Origin: Desulfurococcales archaeon
GTDB taxonomy: Archaea > Thermoproteota > Thermoprotei_A > Sulfolobales > NBVN01
Direction of reading: 5' to 3'
Assembly (NCBI GenBank): GCA_023255955.1
Contig: JAGDWD010000010.1
Coordinates: forward strand, 74,765-98,764
DNA: 24,000 nucleotides
Within the stretch, counting starts at the first letter, position 1. The number at the start of each line of letters is the position of its first letter. The notes under the pieces were generated by a model, which did no database searches, was not told the origin of the DNA, and saw only the letters and a program-made list of their open reading frames with translations. Position numbers and translations under genes: made by a program. Of the stretch, positions 8,488 to 22,868 are shown piece after piece.

Positions 8488-9289
8488 ACCACCTCAATCT
8501 ATTAAACTGAATCTGCTTTCCAGTCTCCAGCGAGTAGAAGGACTCTAAGACGGTGTACCTAGGTTCTATTATCCTCCTCCTCAGGACATCTAGGTACTCG
8601 CTCAGTAGGGTTCTCTGCAGTTCGAGGTGGGAATCGACGACGTGGTACCCGCTCATCGTGTATCCATGGAGATGGACGCAGCCAATTGCTCTAAGGGTTC
8701 TCGGTGGTGCCTCTCTTAAGATCTCAGATAGGGACATGGGCCTCCTGTAGAGGCGGCTATACCTCTCAACTGCGTGAGGTATGTCTAAGCAGATCAACGC
8801 CCCGTAATCGAGGTAGTTCACTACCTGCTCTAACCCCCCGCAACAGTAGCTTCTAGTAGTCTCGACATATAGAGGAGCACCTAGCTCACTAGCAACCTCA
8901 GCAATAGCTGTGATCGACTTCAAGCCAGCTGAGACACATACATCCACATTATCGGAGCACACCGCCTGGTCCGTCGAGGCATGGACCACTAGGTAGGTAA
9001 TGTCGAGGCTGCTTAGTTCCCGTAAACACCTAATAACGTAGTTGAGGGAGGTTTCCCTAACCTCGTCAATAGGTGATGCTATGTACACCTCACGCCAAGG
9101 TAGGTGGACCCCCATCTCAAGGCCCGAGCTTAAGAGTTGCTTTAGAGGACCTATCTCGGAGAGCTTTACCGACCTACATAGCGGGTAGTCCAGACTCAGT
9201 TCGAAGCCGTCGAATCCTCCATCAATAACCTCACTTACTAAGCTACCCCTCCTGAAGTCCTTGTACCAGAGGGTTAGAAAAATCCTCAT
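8447..9289 (-). CDS. Xylose isomerase-like TIM-barrel protein (sugar phosphate isomerase/epimerase or AP endonuclease 2 superfamily)
   Basis: GFDGFELSLDYP, LVVHAS and HLHGY-type beta-strand-end motifs are typical of this superfamily. Substrate is unknown. Confidence 0.55.
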   Translation of the reverse strand: MRIFLTLWYKDFRRGSLVSEVIDGGFDGFELSLDYPLCRSVKLSEIGPLKQLLSSGLEMGVHLPWREVYIASPIDEVRETSLNYVIRCLRELSSLDITYLVVHASTDQAVCSDNVDVCVSAGLKSITAIAEVASELGAPLYVETTRSYCCGGLEQVVNYLDYGALICLDIPHAVERYSRLYRRPMSLSEILREAPPRTLRAIGCVHLHGYTMSGYHVVDSHLELQRTLLSEYLDVLRRRIIEPRYTVLESFYSLETGKQIQFNRLRWCVEELKKGYGRDR

Positions 9290-10522: not shown

Positions 10523-10945
10523 TCACCTTCTCTTCATCATCTTCATCATCGATAGCTCGTTAAAGTTCGTATTAACCTGGGACCTCCACTGGTAGACCCA
10601 GCCTGGGACTATCGGCCTCGCATAGGTGGGCGCCTCCATACCTCCGAGCTCTACGGAAGCTTGAGTAGCTAAGTACGTAGCAACTGCGGTCACAGCAGCA
10701 GCTATCTTCTCCTTTATCGAGGTAGTAGAAGGCTCTGCCGGTACAGCCGCCTTAGGTACGGCCTCAACTGTCGGAGGCGGGGTAGGTGTTGTCTCCTCCG
10801 CTCTGCTGGTGGGTGGGGCTTTCTCTTTTGCTGGGAACTTAGCGGAGATGCGGATCGCTATCACGATGATGCCGAGTATTATGAATGACAGTATGTACGC
10901 GTAGATTATCGCTATAGTGTCTAGCGCGCCCATAGCGGACTCCAA
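10523..10945 (-). CDS. Single-pass membrane protein with a Pro/Thr/Ala-rich linker; architecture resembles OadG-type decarboxylase gamma subunits
   Basis: An N-terminal TM (IAIIYAYILSFIILGIIVIAI) is followed by FPAKEKAPP...PTPPPTVEAVPKAAVPAEP and then IKEKIAAAVTAVATYL (compare OadG xxVIAAAIxxH). No partner subunits are nearby. The ATG at 10933 is a more likely start than TTG 10945. Confidence 0.3.
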   Translation of the reverse strand: MESAMGALDTIAIIYAYILSFIILGIIVIAIRISAKFPAKEKAPPTSRAEETTPTPPPTVEAVPKAAVPAEPSTTSIKEKIAAAVTAVATYLATQASVELGGMEAPTYARPIVPGWVYQWRSQVNTNFNELSMMKMMKRR

Positions 10946-11041
10946 GACTACGAAGTGCTAGACCTTTAAAAGCTTGTGTGACCCCATCTATATACTAAAA
11001 ATACCTATTAAACTACCGTATACCCTATTGGAATTGAATTA

Positions 11042-12574
11042 CTAACCTGGTTGAGTTGCTAGAGATAGTCCCTCGCTTCTAGGGTCAGATGCGAACTGAG
11101 CTAGCTGCTTAGATTTCTTCACTACAGCTACGTGTACCAGGCCCGTAGATCCGTAGTCCTCCACTATCTCTACTGTGAGGCCAGCTACCTGAGGGGCTCT
11201 AAGCCTCGGCTCTACAACAACTCTCTTAGTCGTACCAGAAGTCTCTGTGAATATGAACCTTGGGGCGTCTAGGGCCTTGGGGAGGCTCATCCTGTAGATG
11301 AAGATGTTCTCGAAGATCCTGGTATGTATCTGAGGTCTCCAATCACCCCCAGCACAGCCGATTACATACCTCTCGTCCCCACCATCGATAGCGAGTACTG
11401 AGAGAGTGTGGAGAGGCCTCTTCCTAGGTGCTGGGCTGTTAGGTAGTCCAGCCTTCTTCGCGAAGCCGTACCCTCTATTCTGAACCGGGAATCCCAGTGC
11501 TACTAGCCCGGAACCGAATGGGTGGAAGAGGCTCTGGATAAACCCCACTAACGACTCCCCGTCATAGATCGTGAAGAATGTTGTATCACCACCTCCTGGG
11601 GGAGTGTTCTGCGCGGTCTGCTTGTTTAGGAGGAGCTGCTTAGCCTTACCGTAGCTCACAAACTCCGAGACGTCTATGCTGACATACTCCGGATCCCCTA
11701 AGAACGTGTCTCTGAACCCGTAAGCTACCTCCACTATCTCCGACCACCTCTCTATCCGTGAAGGCTCGTCGAAGGGTAGCTGGTTGAGCCCCAACTCATA
11801 GATAGCTGATAGCATTTGGAGTGTCGTAACACCCTGTGTGTTAGGGGGTAGCTCGTAGGCTACCATACCATCGAGGTCCAGCCTCAGAGGCCTCACCTCA
11901 AGCCCCTCATGGTCCATGAGGTCGTCCAGCCCTATATCAACCCCCTGCTCCTGGAGCTCGGTCACGAATTGCTCAGCCAGCCTACCATAGTAGAATTCGT
12001 CCCACCCCCTAGTAGCTAGGGCCCTCAACGTCCTAGCCATTTCCTTGTTTACTATGTAGGTCCCCGGCTCGATGCTCTTGAAGTACTTCACCCACCTGTA
12101 GCTCGAAAGCTCGTTCTCGACCTGCTTAGACGCCCTAGATAGGTAGTAACCTGCGTAGAAACCGTTATAGGCGAGGGACTCTGCGGGCCGCAAAAGCTTC
12201 TCTAGAGGCATTGAGCAGAACTCCTCGGAGAGAAACCCCCAGAGGTATGCTAGCCCTGGAACGGTTACTGTTAACGGGCCTCTCCTCGGGGCGAGCTTGA
12301 GGTACTCATCTGCTTTAAAGCCTGACGGTGATCTACCGCTAGACATATACGCTAGGACGTCGTCACCGTAGAAAGCCATCATGAATCCGTCTCCCCCGAG
12401 ACCACCAGTCTGAGGGAGAACCACTGAGAGAACAGCACTCGCAGCGATAGCAGCGTCGAACGCGTTACCTCCCTCCTCAAGAACCTCAAGAGCTGCTTTA
12501 GAAGCCAGGTAAGAATCCGAAGCTACTCCTCTAGAACCGAAGACCGACTTAACTACCGGCATTGCTACCACCAC
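11042..12574 (-). CDS. ggt: Gamma-glutamyltransferase family protein
   Basis: EEGGNAFDAAIAASAVLSVVLPQTGGLGGDGF is the N-terminal GGT signature. GGGDTTFFTIYD contains the autoprocessing/nucleophile Thr region. No obvious signal peptide is present. The start is GTG 12574 or ATG 12562. Confidence 0.85.
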   Translation of the reverse strand: MVVAMPVVKSVFGSRGVASDSYLASKAALEVLEEGGNAFDAAIAASAVLSVVLPQTGGLGGDGFMMAFYGDDVLAYMSSGRSPSGFKADEYLKLAPRRGPLTVTVPGLAYLWGFLSEEFCSMPLEKLLRPAESLAYNGFYAGYYLSRASKQVENELSSYRWVKYFKSIEPGTYIVNKEMARTLRALATRGWDEFYYGRLAEQFVTELQEQGVDIGLDDLMDHEGLEVRPLRLDLDGMVAYELPPNTQGVTTLQMLSAIYELGLNQLPFDEPSRIERWSEIVEVAYGFRDTFLGDPEYVSIDVSEFVSYGKAKQLLLNKQTAQNTPPGGGDTTFFTIYDGESLVGFIQSLFHPFGSGLVALGFPVQNRGYGFAKKAGLPNSPAPRKRPLHTLSVLAIDGGDERYVIGCAGGDWRPQIHTRIFENIFIYRMSLPKALDAPRFIFTETSGTTKRVVVEPRLRAPQVAGLTVEIVEDYGSTGLVHVAVVKKSKQLAQFASDPRSEGLSLATQPG

Positions 12575-12887
12575 CCTAACTATGCGGTAAGCCGATATAA
12601 CAAGACATCAGAAACAGAATTAAAGTATATTCCATCGATGTCACATCACCGTATACCTTCAACCATAGACCACTAATCCCTTTCCTCACCACATGTTCCA
12701 GACCCTAACCTGATTGTGTTGCTAGTTCGTACCTCTAATTCAAGATATCGGTCTTGAGATTACTACTTTACGTGATGGTAGAACCCTATGATCTCTTACG
12801 ATCTTAACGCAACAGTGGGATTTGATTGGTTTAATCGAGACGGTGAACTGTTAAAATATATTCTACCCAGCAGAACTGCTAAGCAAA

Positions 12888-12915
12888 TTTAATTATTTAA
12901 TACTACTTAAAATAG
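12888..12915 (+). promoter_or_regulatory. A/T-rich candidate promoter region (TTTAATTATTTAATA ... CTTAAAATAG) for the three-gene operon
   Basis: These are the only strongly TATA-like stretches in the 395-bp spacer close to the first ORF. The exact box and transcription start are undetermined. Confidence 0.25.
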
Positions 12916-12969
12916 TGGTGGAATTACACGAGCAAGTTACTGAACGTTGTTTTAGGGCTTTTAGATGAG

Positions 12970-13923
12970 TTGGAGACACCTGAGCAGGAAGGTGTTGCTG
13001 TGATCCCCGAGACATACTTACCTCTTTTCTCTAAGGTCTTAGACTCATTTGGCACTATCCTCACACTTTACCCTGAGGATGCCAGTCTAACGACCCCGTC
13101 AGGTAAGTGGCGCTGGATTAAGCTACCTGTTAAAGACTTTGAAGAACCCGTAATCCAGCTGTCCGGCTCTATTCTTGAGGAGTATGGTGAGGTAGCTAGG
13201 AGCATAGTTTCCTATATAAGTCCGGTAGTTACGCGGTCTGTAATGATCGTTTCAGGAACTCGTGACCATACTACTGTGACAGCATATGAGGTGCTGAAGC
13301 TAATGGAAAACTTAAGGATGTTTCCCGACGTACATCTCATCCTAGATGTGGACCTCAGCGATGTAGGTAAGCTTGATAAGATCAATATAGCATCGCTTAT
13401 CGGTCGCTTGATGGCGTTCAAAAACTTCTCGATAATTCTATTCTCTATTAATAGAGTAGCGGAATACTCAACCAAGCTGGGTCAGGTAGACTACGTCGAG
13501 CAGTGTCTCGCAGAGATCTTGACTAAGTTCTTTAGGAACCCTATTACCGGCACATACATCCCCATATGCCTGAGCTTAGAGCCTGTCTCAATATTTAGAG
13601 ATGCTACCTCAGCTATAGACATAGCATTCTACGCATACACGAGACTACATAGAGCACCCCTTAACAACACGCTATTTGGGGTAGTCAGAGTGTGGAAGGG
13701 TATGAGGGAGAGGTTAGGAGCTCTGAGGGAGATTACCGAAGACAGGTTGGTCTTAGAGTATCTAGATAACGATAAAATAGAAGTGAAAGCATTAATCAGA
13801 TACGGGATAATGAATGTCCTCAGTGAGGGTGTGGAGATGTTACGCGAGATAGCTCGTTCTGGGGATGCTATCACTATCGCAGCCAGACTTTCACGACTTC
13901 AAGACAGGTTGGTCAGCGTGTGA
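12970..13923 (+). CDS. Hypothetical soluble alpha/beta protein (operon gene 1); no canonical nucleotide-binding signature
   Basis: The 317-aa ORF has a TTG start and no in-frame ATG/GTG upstream back to the stop at 12913-12915. It shows a regular beta-alpha-beta pattern at residues ~88-165 and a helical C-terminal third. The gap to the next ORF is 3 nt. Confidence 0.6.
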   Translation: METPEQEGVAVIPETYLPLFSKVLDSFGTILTLYPEDASLTTPSGKWRWIKLPVKDFEEPVIQLSGSILEEYGEVARSIVSYISPVVTRSVMIVSGTRDHTTVTAYEVLKLMENLRMFPDVHLILDVDLSDVGKLDKINIASLIGRLMAFKNFSIILFSINRVAEYSTKLGQVDYVEQCLAEILTKFFRNPITGTYIPICLSLEPVSIFRDATSAIDIAFYAYTRLHRAPLNNTLFGVVRVWKGMRERLGALREITEDRLVLEYLDNDKIEVKALIRYGIMNVLSEGVEMLREIARSGDAITIAARLSRLQDRLVSV

Positions 13924-13926
13924 GCT

Positions 13927-15996
13927 ATGAATAGAGATGTATTGACCAGGAAGTTTATGGTATCGTGTATTTACCTAGCCTACTTCCTGGTGTTACTCTG
14001 GGCAATACCTATATGGGAGTATTTGGAGCTAATAGTTCTCTCAGCTCTCTCCGTTGCTGTGGTTTTCGTTGTCGGTGATAGGCACCCAGGTATCGCCACG
14101 ACCTTCATAATTCTACTGATAGCGACATACCTGGGTAGAGTTTACACAGTTAACGGCGTGACGTATTCCCTACCTTACGCTAAGGTAGCAGTAATTTCCC
14201 TTCTTTCCATGTTAATTATCCCAATATATCTCACTATGTCTGAAGCAGGTGAGCTTTCTGAGGTTATTATTGGGGGAGCATATATAGTTGCTTTCATGGC
14301 GTCTGTTGCTGGGCCGAGATCTTTAGCTATCTCTCTTTCTCTATTTGCTTCACTATCCACTGTCACGGTAGGTTACATGCTAGCCATAGCTATGAGCGTC
14401 TCATACTCCGTATTCTACTTGACAGCTACATACGTAGCTAAGTTCTCTACAACGGATGTTAGTAAGCTGGTAGCAATACCGATAGAGTTCTCAAGGATAG
14501 AGAAGGAATATCTAGGTGACTGGGCTTTGATTAGGCTATTCTTATCTCTCACTCTATTCGCACTCGGCCTCCTGCTCAGTAGATTTGCTGAGGAAAGAAT
14601 GAGGAAAACCTACACCAGTCACCTAGAAAGGAGGATAGTGAAAGCCTTCGTCTTGGGGATAGCCACGAAGATGGCTATAGCTATTTCAATCACGGTGTTA
14701 GCTACCCTACTCACTACTAGCTTAGCTGATATCCCGGCAACAGTTTTAATTACAGTTGCGGTAGTAGGGGCTCTAAGCTCTATCAGAAGCTACATAGATC
14801 TAGCTGAGAGAGTTCATAGCCTGGTAGCTGAATGTCACGAGCACGCGGAGTCTCTGAGCTATAAGATCAAGATATCTGAAGCTGTTCTAGGAGAATTTCA
14901 GGGTAGCTCTCTGAGATCGTTCAAAGATCTTGAAGAGAGTTCTTCTGAGGCTAAGAAAGTCCTCTCCAGCTATGAGAGCATAAAGCACTTGGGGGTTACA
15001 GATTACCCCGCTATATTTAGGACCTGCCGAAAGCTTGAGGAAGTTGACGAGGAGTTAGGTAATAAGATCCTCAACGTCGTCTCAGAACTTGATAACAACA
15101 TAAAGACCTTACTCAGCATTAGCGCTTCGGAGGTCCGAAAATCCCTTATCCTCATCCTGGATGAGATGAGAACACTACGGCGGGAACCGGAAAGGATGGG
15201 TGCTCTCCCTGACCTGATATCTAGGATCACACAAGCTCTCAGGAGATACTGCCACGAACTCCACAAGATGTTATCGGAGACTATACCTAAGTCCTATGGA
15301 GACATATTTGGAATAGAGTTCTCGATTAGAGAGATCCCGAAGTGCTCAGGAAGTAACTTCGGAGATATACAAGCATATCAGAACTACGTACTAGCAGCTC
15401 TACTAGGTATGGATAGACAGCTAGATTCATTAATAAGTAAACTTGATAAACTAGCAAGTGAAGCACGTAGATTGAGTGGGGTGCTGGAAGCTCACGGGCT
15501 TAGGAGTCACCAGCTAATGAAGTTACTTGAGGTTTACCGGAAGTATTTCTCTCAAGCCTACCTAGCAAACTCTTTAGAAGCTGTTGAGAAAGTTCTCTTC
15601 ATGTCGGAGATCTACAGGAATGTCATGTCGGAAGTATCGACTCTTCTAGAGGGATTTCAACCCGTAGAAATTAATGATAGCAACATAAGTCGAGTTACTT
15701 CCGAGTTTATGAAACCTCTAGAAGAATCATTAAGAGAGCTCGCATCCCACGAAATATCTTTCTTAGACTCTATAGTAGTTCTTGAGGGAGTTCTTAAAAA
15801 CGTATCGAGCTCCACATGGTCATTCTCGAGCATGTACACTCTGTTAGAGAGTCTCCAACTACTTAGATCTATCCAACCTCTCGTATCGGACTACATTAGA
15901 GATGGGGTTAGGAGGGGCTATAGATTCGAGGAGATATTCCCGTTGAGGGAGGATTTACGTCAGTTCTGGGTTATTCTATACGGTTCGGGTGGTTAA
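13927..15996 (+). CDS. Hypothetical polytopic membrane protein with a large helical cytoplasmic C-terminal domain (operon gene 2)
   Basis: The ATG start lies 3 nt after the gene 1 stop. About 9-10 hydrophobic segments fall in residues 10-290, followed by ~400 aa rich in E/K/L/S with long predicted helices. I recognise no enzymatic motif. Confidence 0.65.
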   Translation: MNRDVLTRKFMVSCIYLAYFLVLLWAIPIWEYLELIVLSALSVAVVFVVGDRHPGIATTFIILLIATYLGRVYTVNGVTYSLPYAKVAVISLLSMLIIPIYLTMSEAGELSEVIIGGAYIVAFMASVAGPRSLAISLSLFASLSTVTVGYMLAIAMSVSYSVFYLTATYVAKFSTTDVSKLVAIPIEFSRIEKEYLGDWALIRLFLSLTLFALGLLLSRFAEERMRKTYTSHLERRIVKAFVLGIATKMAIAISITVLATLLTTSLADIPATVLITVAVVGALSSIRSYIDLAERVHSLVAECHEHAESLSYKIKISEAVLGEFQGSSLRSFKDLEESSSEAKKVLSSYESIKHLGVTDYPAIFRTCRKLEEVDEELGNKILNVVSELDNNIKTLLSISASEVRKSLILILDEMRTLRREPERMGALPDLISRITQALRRYCHELHKMLSETIPKSYGDIFGIEFSIREIPKCSGSNFGDIQAYQNYVLAALLGMDRQLDSLISKLDKLASEARRLSGVLEAHGLRSHQLMKLLEVYRKYFSQAYLANSLEAVEKVLFMSEIYRNVMSEVSTLLEGFQPVEINDSNISRVTSEFMKPLEESLRELASHEISFLDSIVVLEGVLKNVSSSTWSFSSMYTLLESLQLLRSIQPLVSDYIRDGVRRGYRFEEIFPLREDLRQFWVILYGSGG

Positions 15997-15998
15997 AT

Positions 15999-16874
15999 AT
16001 GCTTTGCAGAGATAATCAGATAGTGACCCCGTGTCAGTTGGAGTTTGCTGATACCCACCTAGTCTTACGTTTTAGAGGAACTTGGAGAGAGCTCATTATA
16101 GAGTTCAATTCTATAACTGAGCTGATCTTCGACGAGACTATGGGCAGGCTAATGATATATACTCGAGTTCAAGATAGTGCGTTAGAAATATCGCCCCAGA
16201 GCATTGAGGACCTAGACTCGATCTCAAGGATCTTAGCTGTGATGGCTCTTTCAGAGAACCCCTCAGTGCTTGACAGAGTAGAGGAGTTCCTGAAGATATT
16301 CGGTGATGTAACTTCAGGGATAATCAAGTTAGTTGCATTACTTCAGGAAGTTGACGTTAGAGGAGGAATTAACTGGAATAAAATATCCGAGGTAGCCGGA
16401 GAAATCACCGAGGCAGTTAATATGTTGTCAGGTAAGGTACCGGGTTTCTACAACGAGAGCTTCAGGTCTTTAATGAACTCTATTGAGAGCCGACACATCA
16501 AGGAAGTTATTCGGAGAGCCGAGGCCGTACTTACGCACGTATACAACGCTTCTAGATCCAGCTTAACTGGACTCATCCCAGGTACTTGCTCCGAAGTTCT
16601 TCTAGATCTAGTGCTACTCTATGTACTTACGTCCTCGACGGCCTCGAAGAGGATTTCTGTATCGGAGAGAGGCTTAGTAACGATCAGAGAGGTGTCCGAG
16701 GTTGCTTCAGCAAGGTATGCGAATGTATTCGGGGTTCAGGAAAGCCATTTAGTTAGGATCAGGGAACTAATCCGTGACGGTGTAGCCAGCGTAGGGGAAT
16801 TCATTAGGGAAATTATGGATGCGCTACGGAGTACTTCCACTGGATTCAGTCGAGGAGGTAATCTAGGTAGATAA
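15999..16874 (+). CDS. Hypothetical protein with a small beta-rich N-terminal domain (PH/GRAM-like pattern) plus a helical domain (operon gene 3)
   Basis: The ATG lies 2 nt after the gene 2 stop. Residues 1-85 alternate short hydrophobic strands and end in a helix (HLVLRFRG, ELIIEF, ELIFDE, RLMIYTRV, ALEISP, then LDSISRILAVMAL). The rest is helical. Confidence 0.6.
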   Translation: MLCRDNQIVTPCQLEFADTHLVLRFRGTWRELIIEFNSITELIFDETMGRLMIYTRVQDSALEISPQSIEDLDSISRILAVMALSENPSVLDRVEEFLKIFGDVTSGIIKLVALLQEVDVRGGINWNKISEVAGEITEAVNMLSGKVPGFYNESFRSLMNSIESRHIKEVIRRAEAVLTHVYNASRSSLTGLIPGTCSEVLLDLVLLYVLTSSTASKRISVSERGLVTIREVSEVASARYANVFGVQESHLVRIRELIRDGVASVGEFIREIMDALRSTSTGFSRGGNLGR

Positions 16875-17163
16875 TGCTTTCCCTACTTATTCTATCCCCG
16901 GAGATCTCTACACCCTCAAGCTCTAGAAGCCTATGCTTAAACTCTCTGCTGGGCCTGCCGCTCAAGGTGTAGCCACCTAAGTCTCTCGAAGCTGAGACGA
17001 CTCTGTGGCATGGGACTACTATAGGGTTTTTATTGTACTTCAACATGCGGGCTACTGCGCGGGGTGATGTTTTGAGTACCTTAGCTAGGGAGCTGTACGT
17101 GGTTACGTAACCCGGGGGTATTATCTGAAGTAAAATAAATAGTATTTCCTTCTTCCTTATCAA
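16846..17163 (-). CDS. ogt: Single-domain methylated-DNA-protein-cysteine methyltransferase (MGMT/Ogt C-terminal DNA-binding domain only)
   Basis: It carries the IPPGYVTTYSSLAKVL, NKNPIVVPCHRVV (PCHRV active-site Cys) and LLELEGV motifs. At 105 aa it lacks the N-terminal domain. The start is TTG. Confidence 0.8.
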   Translation of the reverse strand: MIRKKEILFILLQIIPPGYVTTYSSLAKVLKTSPRAVARMLKYNKNPIVVPCHRVVSASRDLGGYTLSGRPSREFKHRLLELEGVEISGDRISRESIIYLDYLLD

Positions 17164-17166
17164 GCC

Positions 17167-17379
17167 CTATCCAGACTCTGCTTTCTTAGATTTGATTACT
17201 ATGACTCCCTTCTCCTCGTTCCTCTCTATTATGTACTCTTCTCCCCATTTCTCGATCATGGACTTAGGTATGTAGAGATTTAGTGGGAGCGTGTAGTACT
17301 CGTAGGTGTAGGTCTTACCCCGAACACTCTTTCTCCCGGAAATTTTCCTTACCTTAACTTCTCTTCTTCTAACCGACAT
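17167..17379 (-). CDS. Small basic protein, possibly AbrB/SpoVT-like DNA-binding
   Basis: The 70-aa ORF has an ATG start and a K/R-rich N-terminus. LNLYIPKSMIEKWGEEYIIERNEEKGVIVIK fits the AbrB swapped-hairpin pattern (xIPKxxxxxxgxxxgxxxxixxxxxGxIvI). Gaps to both neighbours are 3 nt. Confidence 0.35.
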   Translation of the reverse strand: MSVRRREVKVRKISGRKSVRGKTYTYEYYTLPLNLYIPKSMIEKWGEEYIIERNEEKGVIVIKSKKAESG

Positions 17380-19604: not shown

Positions 19605-21170
19605 GTGCTTGAGGAGTTTAAGTACTGTTTAGATGAAGGGACTGACAGCGACCTAATATCTTTTAGAGATGTTTTACGGAGATTCGTAGCTGGGGCTCAA
19701 ACCATTAGAAGTGTTGATGGATTCCTAGTTCAGCTCGGTGTACTAGTCTTTGAAGTTGAGGAATTACTTGGTAAGGATGCGGAAAGAGTAGGCTCTGTAG
19801 TTAAGAAGTTACTAGCCTGTAGAGAGGTTGTCGAAGCGTTGAGGCCCCTAACTAGATATACTAAGGAGGTAAAGCACCTAGTTACAACAGACCCTAGGCA
19901 CAGATCCCTCAGACCCTACCTGGAGGACTTGCTTAAGCTCTTGGAAAGCATACCACCATCTGTAGAGGTTAAACACCTAGAGATAAGGAGACCTAGTCTT
20001 CCAGAGCTTGAGGTAACGCATAAAGAGGAGGCCGTCCGACCCTTAAGAACTCCCACCATCTTCGAAGAGTATACACGTGAAGCTGATATCCCCAAGAAAG
20101 AAAGTAGCAATAGTAAAAACACCGGTACTCGGAAGAAAGTCGGTCTAATTTTGCTGATAGTTGTGCTTATGCTATTGATTACCTATGTATTGCCACACCA
20201 TACTATTAATTATACTACTAGTTGGAGTTTCTTTACTATTAATTATACTACTAGTTGGAGTTTCTTTTCCTCAGCTGGTGCTCCCAGAAAACTGGTACTC
20301 AATAATACACACATCACCCTAGTTATGGAGGGTAGGCCTTACGGCTGGTTAAAAATGGGTGATACCACTGTTCTCTACTTAACTCCTGAAGCAGGGGGTG
20401 GGTCGGAGCTCCTCAGTCCTGATTACTTGTTTGTGAATAGTACTCATGGTGTAATGGTTTACTCAGCTAGGCGAATAGTGAGCGCTTTGAGAAGGGTAGG
20501 CATGTTAAGCTATGTATCAACATATAAAGTACTAACTAGAGAAGGGTATGTGTGTCATTTTTCTATAAGCATCGAAGAGAAAATAATTCCCGCTAGCTGT
20601 ACAAGTGTACTGCTTTTAGTCAGACCAGACCCCCATATAGATCTATTAGAAGCAGTTATGTACGGATATAATACCACAACACTGGAAATAATTAGGAAGG
20701 AGGTTCTTGGAGGTAAGCTCCTTAGCAATGAAGAGACTCTACGGAGGGTTCTATCGTGGCTCGAGAAGAATACTGAGTACGATTACGAAAAAGCTGAGGC
20801 CACTTCATTTAGTGTTCTCACACCTCTTCAGTTTCTTAAGGTAAGGAAGGGGGTGTGCTCAGATTACGCTGTTTTTACTGCTGCCGCCCTACTAGCCGGC
20901 GGGTTTAAGGAAGTATTCATAGTGATTATTAACACTTCCGTAGGCTGGCACGCTACTGCTGGCGTAGTACTTAATGAAATGTTTTTGGTAGCCGATCAAA
21001 GATTACCGCCTATAGAGTGGGGTGACTACATAGAATACTGGTTTAAACCCGTGGGTGAAGTCCAAGTCTTAAAGATTCGTATGGACAGAAACACTCCCGT
21101 AGTTGAGGGTTGGGTCGTGAATCCTAGAGAGCTGATATACCATATCCGGACAGTTACCCTGAGAATTTAA
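19605..21170 (+). CDS. Membrane-anchored transglutaminase-like (cysteine protease fold) protein
   Basis: It has a GTG start, a ~175-aa helical cytoplasmic N-domain, and one TM (VGLILLIVVLMLLITYVL). The extracytoplasmic domain carries a Cys-His-Asp triad with the expected spacing: GVCSDYAVF (Cys418, codon 20856-20858), GWHATAG (His449) and VADQ (Asp464). Confidence 0.7.
   Translation: MLEEFKYCLDEGTDSDLISFRDVLRRFVAGAQTIRSVDGFLVQLGVLVFEVEELLGKDAERVGSVVKKLLACREVVEALRPLTRYTKEVKHLVTTDPRHRSLRPYLEDLLKLLESIPPSVEVKHLEIRRPSLPELEVTHKEEAVRPLRTPTIFEEYTREADIPKKESSNSKNTGTRKKVGLILLIVVLMLLITYVLPHHTINYTTSWSFFTINYTTSWSFFSSAGAPRKLVLNNTHITLVMEGRPYGWLKMGDTTVLYLTPEAGGGSELLSPDYLFVNSTHGVMVYSARRIVSALRRVGMLSYVSTYKVLTREGYVCHFSISIEEKIIPASCTSVLLLVRPDPHIDLLEAVMYGYNTTTLEIIRKEVLGGKLLSNEETLRRVLSWLEKNTEYDYEKAEATSFSVLTPLQFLKVRKGVCSDYAVFTAAALLAGGFKEVFIVIINTSVGWHATAGVVLNEMFLVADQRLPPIEWGDYIEYWFKPVGEVQVLKIRMDRNTPVVEGWVVNPRELIYHIRTVTLRI
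20202..20267 (+). repeat. Perfect 33-bp tandem duplication (2 copies), in frame, inside the transglutaminase-like gene
   Basis: ACTATTAATTATACTACTAGTTGGAGTTTCTTT occurs at 20202-20234 and again at 20235-20267 with no mismatch. It encodes TINYTTSWSFF twice, immediately after the TM helix. Confidence 0.95.
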
Positions 21171-21501
21171 CTCCAGCTAAAGTTATTGTTTGGTTCACTA
21201 AAGTACCTCACAGCTCTTCACATGAAATCTCGATGCGTTAGTGGATGGCCGGCAAAGGACACTACAAATAAATCCAGTAGACATGACTTCTAATAAATTT
21301 TTGGATGATATGCCCAGACCGATGTTGAACTGAGGGAGCGGTTTGACTAAGCTGCAGGGTGGTATAACTATAATTCTGGGAACTCTACGTAAGTTATAGC
21401 TAGATCCCTGTGGGTGAGGTGAAGTATCTAGAAACTATTTCCAGGTGATCCGTACGCTGATCTCACCCAGTTAACTTCAATAGCAGTGTTGATGAGGTTT
21501 T

Positions 21502-22145
21502 GTTCGTGACAACGTTAAAGCAAACAAGGTAACCATAAAGAACCTGAAGATAAGCAAACACTACTATTATGGTATCTCTCTGGATGGTTCGAACCATAAC
21601 AAAATATTAAATAACATTGTATCATCAAATAGGAACGGTATCCACCTGGTTTATTCGTCTGATAATGTGATATTTAATAATATCCTTTTAGTAATCTAAT
21701 AAACGCAGTTCTTAAGGCTGCTGGTAGGAATTATTGGAATACTACTAGGACTGTTGGGAGGAATATTGTTGGAGGTAACTACCTCGGTGGAAACTGCTGG
21801 AGTAATCTTAATGGAACAGGATTCAGTGATACCTGCGAAGATAGAGATAAAGATGGAATATGCGATAAACCACTCCGATTAGATAAAATAACGTTGACTG
21901 GCTACCACTAGCTAAACCAACAACACCTATTATATTACTATAACTCGGACTACAACAGCAACTACCACGCGACCTATAACTACTACTGCTACAGTTACTA
22001 CTACTGTAACACAGCCTCCAAAACTACGACTACTACATTTACTGTAACTCAGAATACTGCAACGGTAACCACTTCACATACTGTTACTACAGCTCGATAT
22101 GAAACAACTACGGTACTTCTGGATGTCCTACTAACTACCTACTAG
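21502..22145 (+). pseudogene. Decayed gene for a secreted right-handed beta-helix (NosD/CASH-like) protein with a Thr-rich stalk and hydrophobic C-terminus
   Basis: Frame A reads VRDNVKANKVTIKNLKISKHYYYGISLDGSNHNKILNNIVSSNRNGIHLVYSSDNVIFNNILLVI and ends in a double stop at 21697-21702. A shifted frame reads NAVLKAAGRNYWNTTRTVGRNIVGGNYLGGNCWSNLNGTGFSDTCEDRDKDGICDKP. A further shift gives NVDWLPLAKPTTP. Thr-rich TTTATTT.../TTTTTFTVTQNTATVTTSHTVTT segments then end in VLLDVLLTTY and a stop at 22143-22145. No intact ORF of 60 aa or more exists here. Confidence 0.55.
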
Positions 22146-22437
22146 AGTAGCAGAGTAGATTAGGTTGACCTACCATCTAAGTCTCCTAAGAGCTTCCTAC
22201 CCCTCTAGATGGTTATGTGGCTCCTTCCTTAAAGGTAGTTGGATAATTCTCCCAGAGTTAGTTGCTAGAGGTAGAAGTAGGACCTACCTGGCTACTAGGA
22301 TTCAGGGCTTGGCCGGGCTTTAAAGAACTACTCGGTTCTTTTAGAGGGTGGGCCTGCGTGCGGGGGACTCGAGCTTTAGATGGTTTAGTAGATTAAGATG
22401 GTGAGGTAGTACCCACTCCATTATATATTTAGTTGTT

Positions 22438-22617
22438 TTATAGTGAACTCTGCGTAGTGTAGTGTGGGTTGCTGTAGTAGGCTTCACGAATCTTATTCAG
22501 TGTAACCTTAACTGGCATTTCAGCCGGGGCCCGCATTGACATCTGAAATAGACCAATCCCGATCATTGTTACTACTAGGACAGCGAGCAAAACCCCGATT
22601 AAGAGTGTTTTCCTCAA
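22438..22617 (-). CDS. Candidate 59-aa small membrane protein (below the ORF-track cutoff)
   Basis: A TTG start at 22617 gives (M)RKTLLIGVLLAVLVVTMIGIGLFQMSMRAPAEMPVKVTLNKIREAYYSNPHYTTQSSL, with a clear N-terminal TM/signal segment. There is no other support. Confidence 0.25.
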   Translation of the reverse strand: MRKTLLIGVLLAVLVVTMIGIGLFQMSMRAPAEMPVKVTLNKIREAYYSNPHYTTQSSL

Positions 22618-22868
22618 AAGCTTATCCCTATTATATGCTGAAGGTAATAAAATATAGCCCTATAGATTCGCTGCATGTAGAGCTGTCAGCCCACTCCGCA
22701 GGCTTAAGTGGAGTAACCCTCTAAGACCTCGTTATTACTCTGCAGAACTACCTTTAGGAGTTAGTAGATAAAGTACCTACTAGAGATCCTCCTAGTTGGT
22801 TCTATGTATCACTTAACTATGTAGATGGCCTCGGTATACTCAAGGATAAAGTATTTCCTGGGGGATGG

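Follow-up and report, generated by a model that had tools for sequence, protein, structure and literature searches.

Within a 24,000-nucleotide (nt) stretch of contig JAGDWD010000010.1 (Desulfurococcales archaeon, assembly GCA_023255955.1; the whole stretch is hereafter called the window), we analyzed three consecutive genes, P1, P2, and P3, which are real genes, under selection, always adjacent, and co-inherited. Our preferred explanation, to which we assign a probability of roughly 0.4, is that their products form a lineage-specific complex at the cytoplasmic surface of the membrane, with P1 and P3 docked on the head of the membrane protein P2, and that this complex would serve as a scaffold or coupling device without nucleoside triphosphatase (NTPase) activity.

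The three open reading frames (ORFs) are co-oriented on the + strand (12970-13923, 13927-15996, and 15999-16874), are separated by gaps of 3 and 2 nt, and encode products of 317, 689, and 291 amino acids (aa), as an earlier note on this DNA had reported. Their lengths far exceed those of chance ORFs. Public gene calls place the start of P2 at ATG 13957, yielding a 679-aa product; we favor 13927 (689 aa) because the 10 extra N-terminal residues are kept in all orthologs.

Distribution and synteny of the triad

P1, P2, and P3 each occur in only three to four clusters among 5.8 billion proteins, and when the P1 profile was run exhaustively with HMMER against 1.84 billion representatives clustered at 50% identity, it recovered two clusters only. 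The distant P1 cluster (34% identity) derives from a metagenome-assembled genome (MAG) deposited at NCBI as ‘Sulfolobales archaeon’ GMQS_201709_bins_9, a 1.28-Mb genome of 48% GC assigned by GTDB to o__Sulfolobales; f__NBVN01; g__DRZP01 (PMC11094006, supplementary file 5). When genome contigs were scanned, the two-clade P1 alignment returned one MAG, and P2 patterns specific to clade A (defined below) returned no match; a scan of Joint Genome Institute (JGI) metagenomes added six more triad loci. The total comes to approximately six species-level lineages of uncultured hot-spring archaea in two genus-level clades: clade A (the window, L004, and L005/L007/L012) and clade B (L006, L008/L009, and L010/L011). 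The clade for which a taxonomy is available belongs to the GTDB Sulfolobales family NBVN01, and neither DTCV01 nor Zestosphaera, other genera of the same family, was hit by either the exhaustive search with P1 or the scan of genomes. The window's own organism probably falls in NBVN01 as well, given that its flanking proteins share 58-71% identity with those of L006. Rather than being conserved across archaea, the breadth that the earlier note had considered, the triad is confined to these two clades, and the searches suggest that it is restricted to two genera.

Everywhere it was found, the locus has the same order: APE2, DUF354, a block comprising a ~140-aa transmembrane (TM) ORF and a gamma-glutamyltranspeptidase (GGT) gene, P1, P2, P3, MGMT, a 70-aa AbrB/MazE-like gene, and PterinBD. 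The order P1-P2-P3 is fixed, never split, and found at the same chromosomal site across 29-34% protein identity, with intergenic gaps of +3 to -17 nt in the orthologs. The three genes behave as a closely coupled unit wherever they occur, as had been predicted, and were never encountered unlinked. This adjacency is not independent evidence of functional linkage because the whole region is syntenic. One rearrangement separates the clades: the block holding the ~140-aa single-TM ORF and GGT is inverted in clade A relative to clade B (window 10523-12574 versus L006 7791-9939), while the triad and the genes downstream of it are unmoved. As a consequence of this inversion, GGT and the small TM ORF of clade B lie on the same strand as P1 and directly upstream of it.

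We also looked for relatives in mobile DNA. Alignments of P1, P2, and P3 found none on IMG/VR viral contigs; phage and plasmid records contained none when queried with P2 by tblastn; PHROGs yielded nothing significant, and a BFVD fold search yielded nothing. A viral or plasmid origin was therefore rejected, and the best reading is that the triad is vertically inherited and lineage specific.

Selection and rate of evolution

The triad is under purifying selection. Relative to a 98%-identical strain (L013), the ratio of non-synonymous to synonymous substitution rates (dN/dS) is 0.31 for P1, 0.41 for P2, and 0.46 for P3, compared with 0.07-0.22 for most neighbors with enough substitutions, all of these values being based on small counts. 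Between clades A and B, the identity of P1, P2, and P3 is 34%, 33%, and 29%, respectively, versus 58-71% for five flanking proteins. The three genes are therefore constrained, yet evolve about twofold faster than their neighbors. Such fast evolution alone can explain why distant homologs are undetectable, so that ‘no homolog’ cannot be taken to mean ‘no ancestor’. GC content at third codon positions (GC3) is also lower in the triad (0.46-0.50) than in the housekeeping neighbors (0.54-0.61), a difference compatible with low expression, with relaxed codon selection, or with an old foreign origin.

Architecture of the three proteins

The features of the unit are collected in Table 1; conservation was scored by alignment column in five or six lineages.

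Table 1 Coordinates of features within and around the P1-P2-P3 unit in the window
Feature	Coordinates	Strand	Description
TATA-like box TTTAATTA	12888..12895	+	Probable operon promoter; kept in three clade-A lineages
In-frame P1 5' extension	12916..12969	+	Conserved N-terminal helix (WWNYTSKLLNVVLGLLDE); TAG at 12913-12915 just before
P1	12970..13923	+	317 aa as called, TTG start; soluble; better conserved than P2 and P3
P2 membrane domain, aa 1-290	13927..14796	+	9-10 TM helices (hydropathy; low-confidence AlphaFold2 helices)
P2 cytoplasmic stalk, aa ~291-525	14797..15501	+	Very long predicted helices running on from last TM helix
P2 C-terminal head, aa ~630-689	15814..15996	+	QPLxxxYIxxGxxxGYRFExxFPLxxxLRxLWxLLYGSG
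TACGGTTCGGGTGG	15979..15992	+	Invariant Y-G-S-G codons doubling as GGTG(G/A) Shine-Dalgarno-like motif
P3	15999..16874	+	291 aa; N-module ~85 aa, helical domain ~190 aa, variable tail
P3/convergent MGMT-like gene overlap	16846..16874	.	29 nt; MGMT-like gene 16846-17163, minus; marks end of unit

The earlier description of P2, with 9-10 hydrophobic TM segments in residues 1-290 followed by approximately 400 residues predicted to be all-helical, is borne out by hydropathy and by an AlphaFold2 (AF2) model; the AF2 models of both P1 and P2 were built from four-sequence alignments. Invariant columns make up 20-37% of each 30-residue block of the TM domain, with invariant Ser, Tyr, and Glu both within and between the helices; none of the invariant residues of this domain is His or Cys. 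The loop at 164-199, which probably faces outward, is conserved. Taken together, the conserved polar residues and this loop suggest that the TM domain binds or senses something and is not a mere anchor. A second loop, at 219-239, is rich in Lys and Arg (seven in all) and lies two TM helices ahead of the C-terminal domain; by the positive-inside rule, its position predicts that the 400-residue C-terminal domain is cytoplasmic.

Beyond the membrane, the stalk is the fastest-evolving part of P2, with only 3-13% invariant columns over residues ~270-450, and the helical domain shows a heptad-like hydrophobic periodicity (z up to 4.4). The stalk is also the only confidently modeled part of the protein: the predicted local distance difference test score (pLDDT) is 53.5 overall and 65-91 for residues 290-520, where the modeled helices span 269-323 (continuing the last TM helix), 330-355, 360-396, 401-419, 421-461, and 478-522. 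Conserved within this otherwise variable region is a patch at aa ~484-500, YQNYxLxxLxGxDRQxD. The C-terminal 60 residues are the best-conserved part of P2 (30-45% invariant) and are a candidate docking site for P1, P3, or both. The layout as a whole reads as anchor-stalk-head: a conserved TM domain, a drifting stalk, and a conserved C-terminal head.

P1 is evenly conserved along its length, with ~14 invariant charged residues; its invariant acidic and polar positions include R98-D99, D128, D136-K137-N139, S167-T168, E204, and D211. The earlier note had called P1 a soluble alpha/beta protein. Hydropathy supports the first part of that description, showing no clear TM segment, while the alpha/beta label depends on a low-confidence AF2 model (pLDDT 42.5) that shows a beta-alpha-beta core, then another alpha/beta section, and a pair of helices at the C-terminus. 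In P3, likewise, the lack of a clear TM segment stands, and the proposed beta-rich N-terminal module reflects a sequence pattern: a beta-strand-like alternation bearing the invariant residues C3, R4, C12, E15, and E70-D71-x-D73. Two motifs are invariant in the helical domain of P3, G123-I124-x-W126-x-K128 and P194-G195-T196; residues 192-210 form a hydrophobic helix in which E199 and D203 are invariant.

The N-terminus of P1

P1 probably begins upstream of its called start, TTG 12970. The peptide encoded in frame by 12916-12969 corresponds to the N-terminus of all P1 orthologs; further, this segment differs from that of L004 by ~8 synonymous and one non-synonymous changes, which indicates that it is coding. 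No in-frame ATG, GTG, or TTG precedes the helix in the window (12913-12969), in the 98%-identical strain (L013 ~8957-9013), or in the L005/L007/L012 lineage (L012 8967-9040), and this start-less state is the same in three assemblies as well as in that strain. In L004, a TTG start codon aligns with the TAG of the window. The window and the L005/L007/L012 lineages have instead a GTG (‘GTG G AA’), shifted by one nt from the reading frame, where the 5' end of a leaderless transcript would be expected. The arrangement could reflect (i) non-canonical initiation, (ii) a +1 shift, or (iii) recent loss of the helix.

Searches against known families

By the tests available, the triad appears to fit no known family or system, a statement of absent evidence that also reflects weak structure models. 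Neither the window proteins nor their orthologs at 60% and 30% identity matched anything significantly in Pfam, NCBIfam, PADLOC, or PHROGs. Sequence searches of the PDB, whether run with single sequences, profiles of clade A, or profiles of both clades, returned nothing below E = 1e-4 and nothing sensible. The earlier view of the three genes as uncharacterized thus holds, with no curated family and no solved structure matching any of them, and nothing on P1, P2, or P3 was found in the literature, where mentions of NBVN01 and DRZP01 are confined to taxonomy tables. A regular-expression survey of six orthologs per protein found no conserved Walker A or B, tubulin loop, CxxC, HExxH, GxSxG, or PD-(D/E)xK motif. 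The reported lack of Walker A, Cys-cluster, nuclease, and protease motifs held in every ortholog of the six lineages, and no His is invariant in P1, P2, or P3. The three proteins are not paralogs of one another (hhalign probabilities 0.3-6%).

The only match below 0.001 in the curated libraries was between P2 residues 289-410 and the PADLOC model of JetA (17.6 bits, E 3e-4). Four P2 orthologs lacked this match; they gave either nothing or scores of 11-14 bits to models of other long coiled coils, namely the ZorA tail, LmuB, and JetC. Because the JetA match fails to recur, we attribute it to coiled-coil composition and not to homology.

Several specific identities were rejected for P1. A P-loop NTPase was rejected because none of six orthologs contains a Walker A motif, whether in the form GxxxxGK[ST] or as the deviant KGGxxK[ST], Walker B (hhhhD[DE]) is not conserved, and no P-loop family of Pfam or NCBIfam matched. 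The nucleotide-binding-like fold proposed in the earlier note fares no better: P1 has no nucleotide-binding motif, its sole Gly-containing loop varies (SGTRDHTT versus ADLRDESL), and the model is too poor to decide a fold, Foldseek against the PDB returning only noise (TM-scores of 0.21 or less). The order of secondary structures and the loop ‘VSGTRDHTT’ had been a lead toward a tubulin/FtsZ-like protein, which failed since the Gly is not conserved (ADLRDESL in clade B), Gly-rich T1 and T4 loops (GGGTG[ST]G) are missing, and no Pfam match was obtained at E<=1. Similarly, the N-terminus ‘VAVIPETYLPLFSKVLDS’ was considered as a GT2-like beta1-alpha1 element and discarded, there being no Glycos_transf_2 match in three lineages.

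For P2, no Pfam or NCBIfam match supported a TM domain of the GT-C, Wzy/O-antigen ligase, archaeosortase, CPBP, MFS, or related types, and Foldseek found no match to its model in the PDB or BFVD (best PDB TM-score ~0.1, with the TM part of low confidence). P3, to which the earlier note had given a PH-like adaptor role, matched no PH, bPH, or GRAM family in Pfam or NCBIfam; its alternation (~5 strands and a helix at ~68-85) is compatible with such a fold at the level of sequence pattern. An ESCRT-III/PspA/CdvA identity for P2 or P3 was rejected at the profile level, as no Snf7, PspA_IM30, or CdvA match was obtained (Pfam/NCBIfam, three lineages) and no AAA ATPase gene is nearby; the one related signal was a PDB profile match to the helical core of Vps23 (14.9 bits, E 0.1).

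Expression signals and boundaries of the unit

Co-transcription and coupled translation of the triad are well-founded predictions from the DNA, given the shared phyletic pattern, rate class, and GC3 shift of the three genes, the Shine-Dalgarno (SD)-like motif, and the TATA-like box. In clade A, 25-28 nt separate TTTAATTA from the first conserved codon of P1 downstream, a spacing that would fit a leaderless archaeal transcript. Just upstream of this box is a perfect palindrome, AGCAG-AA-CTGCT (12869-12880), which could be a regulator binding site; the corresponding sequences of L004 and L012 are only partly alike (AAAAGAATTGTT / TAAAGAACTGTC). At the P2-P3 junction, the GGTG(G/A) motif is positioned 6 nt before the P3 ATG, and TACGGTTCGGGTG(A/G) is conserved at the DNA level in all six lineages, which argues for translational coupling of P3 to P2 through TACGGTTCGGGTGG.

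P3 overlaps the MGMT-like gene convergent with it at the 3' end in every lineage, by 24-41 nt, so that a terminator could not fit between the two. Beyond this gene, between MGMT and the PterinBD-DUF4346 gene, lies the 70-aa gene (17167-17379, minus), which is syntenic in all lineages; its copy in L006 gives a weak AbrB/MazE-like match (PF04014, E 0.017, below cutoff).

Farther downstream, GC3 reaches its minimum for the window (0.40) in a gene for a DUF553/transglutaminase-like membrane protein (19605-21170, +), which contains a perfect 33-bp tandem duplication at 20201-20267 (2.0 copies, 100% identity; duplicated residues TINYTTSWSFF, 11 in number). It is followed by 1.7 kb (21171-22868, ~40% GC) without an ORF of at least 60 aa, in which the only Rfam signal is H/ACA snoRNA-like (21461-21626, +; RF00540, 30.6 bits versus a gathering score of 40, E 0.019).

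Proposed complex and alternative explanations

In the explanation that we prefer, P1, P2, and P3 would be made from one transcription unit with coupled translation and would assemble at the cell membrane, on its cytoplasmic side, with P2 as the platform. The last TM helix of P2 would run on as a helix ~55 residues long and join long amphipathic helices in a bundle that acts as a drift-tolerant spacer, and the patch at ~484-500 together with the C-terminal 60 residues would form a head several nanometers below the membrane. P1, as a globular protein, and P3, through its small N-terminal module and helical domain, would dock on this head. The assembly might then act as a scaffold or as a membrane-to-cytoplasm coupler, being neither an NTP-driven machine nor a classical enzyme. 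The physical interaction, the docking at the head, and the non-enzymatic role are all features that we infer.

Of the alternative explanations, a membrane enzyme system is the one we would turn to next, although we consider it unlikely: P1 would be a divergent Rossmann-like, metal-dependent transferase or hydrolase acting on a lipid or envelope precursor, the TM domain of P2 would hold or translocate the substrate, and P3 would be an accessory subunit. It draws on the status of P1 as the most conserved of the three, on the invariant residues D99, D128, D136-K137, S167-T168, E204, and D211, which follow predicted beta-strands of the beta-alpha-beta core, and on the invariant Ser, Tyr, and Glu in the TM helices of P2. 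The neighboring DUF354 and AP_endonuc_2 TIM-barrel genes, which may be sugar related, would lend it weak support; however, these neighbors are on the opposite strand and separately conserved. Further, no enzyme family was matched at E<=1 in three divergent lineages, P1 has no in-register conserved DxD, no conserved His, and no nucleotide-binding loop, and the rapid evolution of the triad would be atypical of a core enzyme. The same polar residues within the ten TM helices, and the better conservation of the TM domain relative to the stalk, could alternatively mark P2 as a new transporter or channel, its ten-helix domain conducting a solute or ion while the helical domain, P1, and P3 gate or regulate it. 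This seems to us somewhat less probable again, as the low-confidence TM model and the P2 sequence matched no transporter family or fold, P2 has no evident internal or inverted-repeat symmetry, and a 400-aa helical tail with two dedicated partners would be unusual for a transporter.

The earlier note had suggested, among other roles, a defense-type module. Spelled out, this would be a membrane-anchored antiviral or virus-interaction system in which a membrane sensor recruits effectors through its tail, analogous to Zorya. Fast evolution, a GC3 below that of the neighbors, a narrow distribution, and the weak coiled-coil-type PADLOC matches (JetA, 17.6 bits; ZorA tail, 13.7 bits) are in keeping with such a role. 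Those matches, however, cover only the coiled-coil stretch and are not reproducible between orthologs of five lineages, and the proteins carry no effector motif, be it nuclease, ATPase, protease, TIR, Sir2, or another. The triad also occupies a fixed housekeeping site with no integrase or island context, is inherited vertically, and is missing from viral contigs, phage and plasmid records, and PHROGs; its outward loop is conserved and not hypervariable, and dN/dS is below 1. The defense reading is not sustained by these results, and we judge it very unlikely. The cytoskeletal or membrane-remodeling role raised alongside it is pure conjecture. Marginally less probable even than defense is that three unrelated lineage-specific genes merely lie side by side and share no function. 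While synteny of the whole region in all lineages deprives adjacency of independent weight, the gaps of 2-3 nt, or overlaps, persist over deep divergence, an SD-like motif is embedded in the 3' end of P2, and P1, P2, and P3 share their phyletic pattern, rate class, and GC3 shift.

Compared with a scaffold or coupling complex of the kind we favor, a bolder proposal would be that the triad is an unseen kind of cytoplasmic apparatus, anchored in the membrane, that arose, or diverged past recognition, in the common ancestor of the two NBVN01 genera; we hold this to be improbable, ranking below the transporter and above the defense module. The head of P2, on its coiled-coil stalk, would place P1 and P3 beneath the membrane, and the apparatus would serve (i) organization of the envelope or cell shape, (ii) anchoring of the division site or chromosome, or (iii) signal relay. 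Other Thermoproteota would then use different proteins for the job, and the folds or assemblies of P1, P2, and P3 would be without a characterized counterpart.

If P1, P2, and P3 do make up a complex anchored in the membrane, the triad would add three new protein families and one new assembly to the Thermoproteota, specifically to the GTDB order Sulfolobales. The cell biology of Thermoproteota serves as a reference for eukaryote-like machineries. Its impact would be limited by its occurrence in approximately six uncultured lineages and by the lack of a functional handle. The locus is nonetheless a clean case of a fast-evolving, vertically inherited orphan operon in a streamlined genome (~1.3 Mb in one MAG), where its retention argues that it is needed, and it illustrates how much lineage-specific cell biology escapes sequence homology.

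Comparison with known systems

ZorA of the Zorya system is a MotA/ExbB-like membrane protein whose very long cytoplasmic helical tail recruits soluble effectors. P2 resembles it in having an N-terminal membrane domain, a long helical cytoplasmic tail, and soluble partners encoded alongside. The triad nevertheless lacks a MotA/ExbB domain (no MotA_ExbB match in Pfam), and neither a counterpart of ZorB nor a nuclease or helicase of the ZorC/D type accompanies it; its one match to the ZorA tail, of 13.7 bits, was limited to the coiled coil of one P2 ortholog, with none in the window or the other orthologs. The locus is also chromosomal, syntenic, vertically inherited, and outside defense islands, and with no Zorya partner genes nearby, we rejected this identity. 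The likeness to the JetA/MksF-type kleisin of Wadjet consists of the 17.6-bit match on P2. JetA is soluble, in contrast to the polytopic P2; given also the four orthologs without the match and a neighborhood of GGT, MGMT, and the like in place of JetB/C/D (SMC ATPase, Toprim), P2 was not accepted as JetA.

Further parallels, likewise architectural only, exist with cell-division and scaffold proteins. CdvA of the crenarchaeal Cdv division system is membrane associated and consists of an N-terminal beta-barrel module, a helical domain, and a flexible tail, which P3 coarsely resembles in its small beta-rich N-terminal module, ~190-aa helical domain, and variable C-terminal tail; P3 differs in giving no CdvA or PRC-barrel match and in having no ESCRT-III or Vps4 gene adjacent. 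Scaffolds of the EzrA/DivIVA type have one or no TM helix and known partners, whereas P2 is without a sequence or fold match to them; the likeness is one of plan, a membrane anchor joined to a long helical cytoplasmic region, which in EzrA and DivIVA organizes partners. Lastly, while P2 has approximately ten TM helices versus the two of a methyl-accepting chemotaxis protein (MCP), and no MCPsignal, HAMP, CheW, or HATPase match was obtained, the MCP/CheW/CheA assembly offers, as an analogy, a similar arrangement: a membrane sensor, a long helical stalk tolerant of drift in sequence, and a conserved cytoplasmic region onto which a small beta-rich adaptor and another soluble protein could dock.

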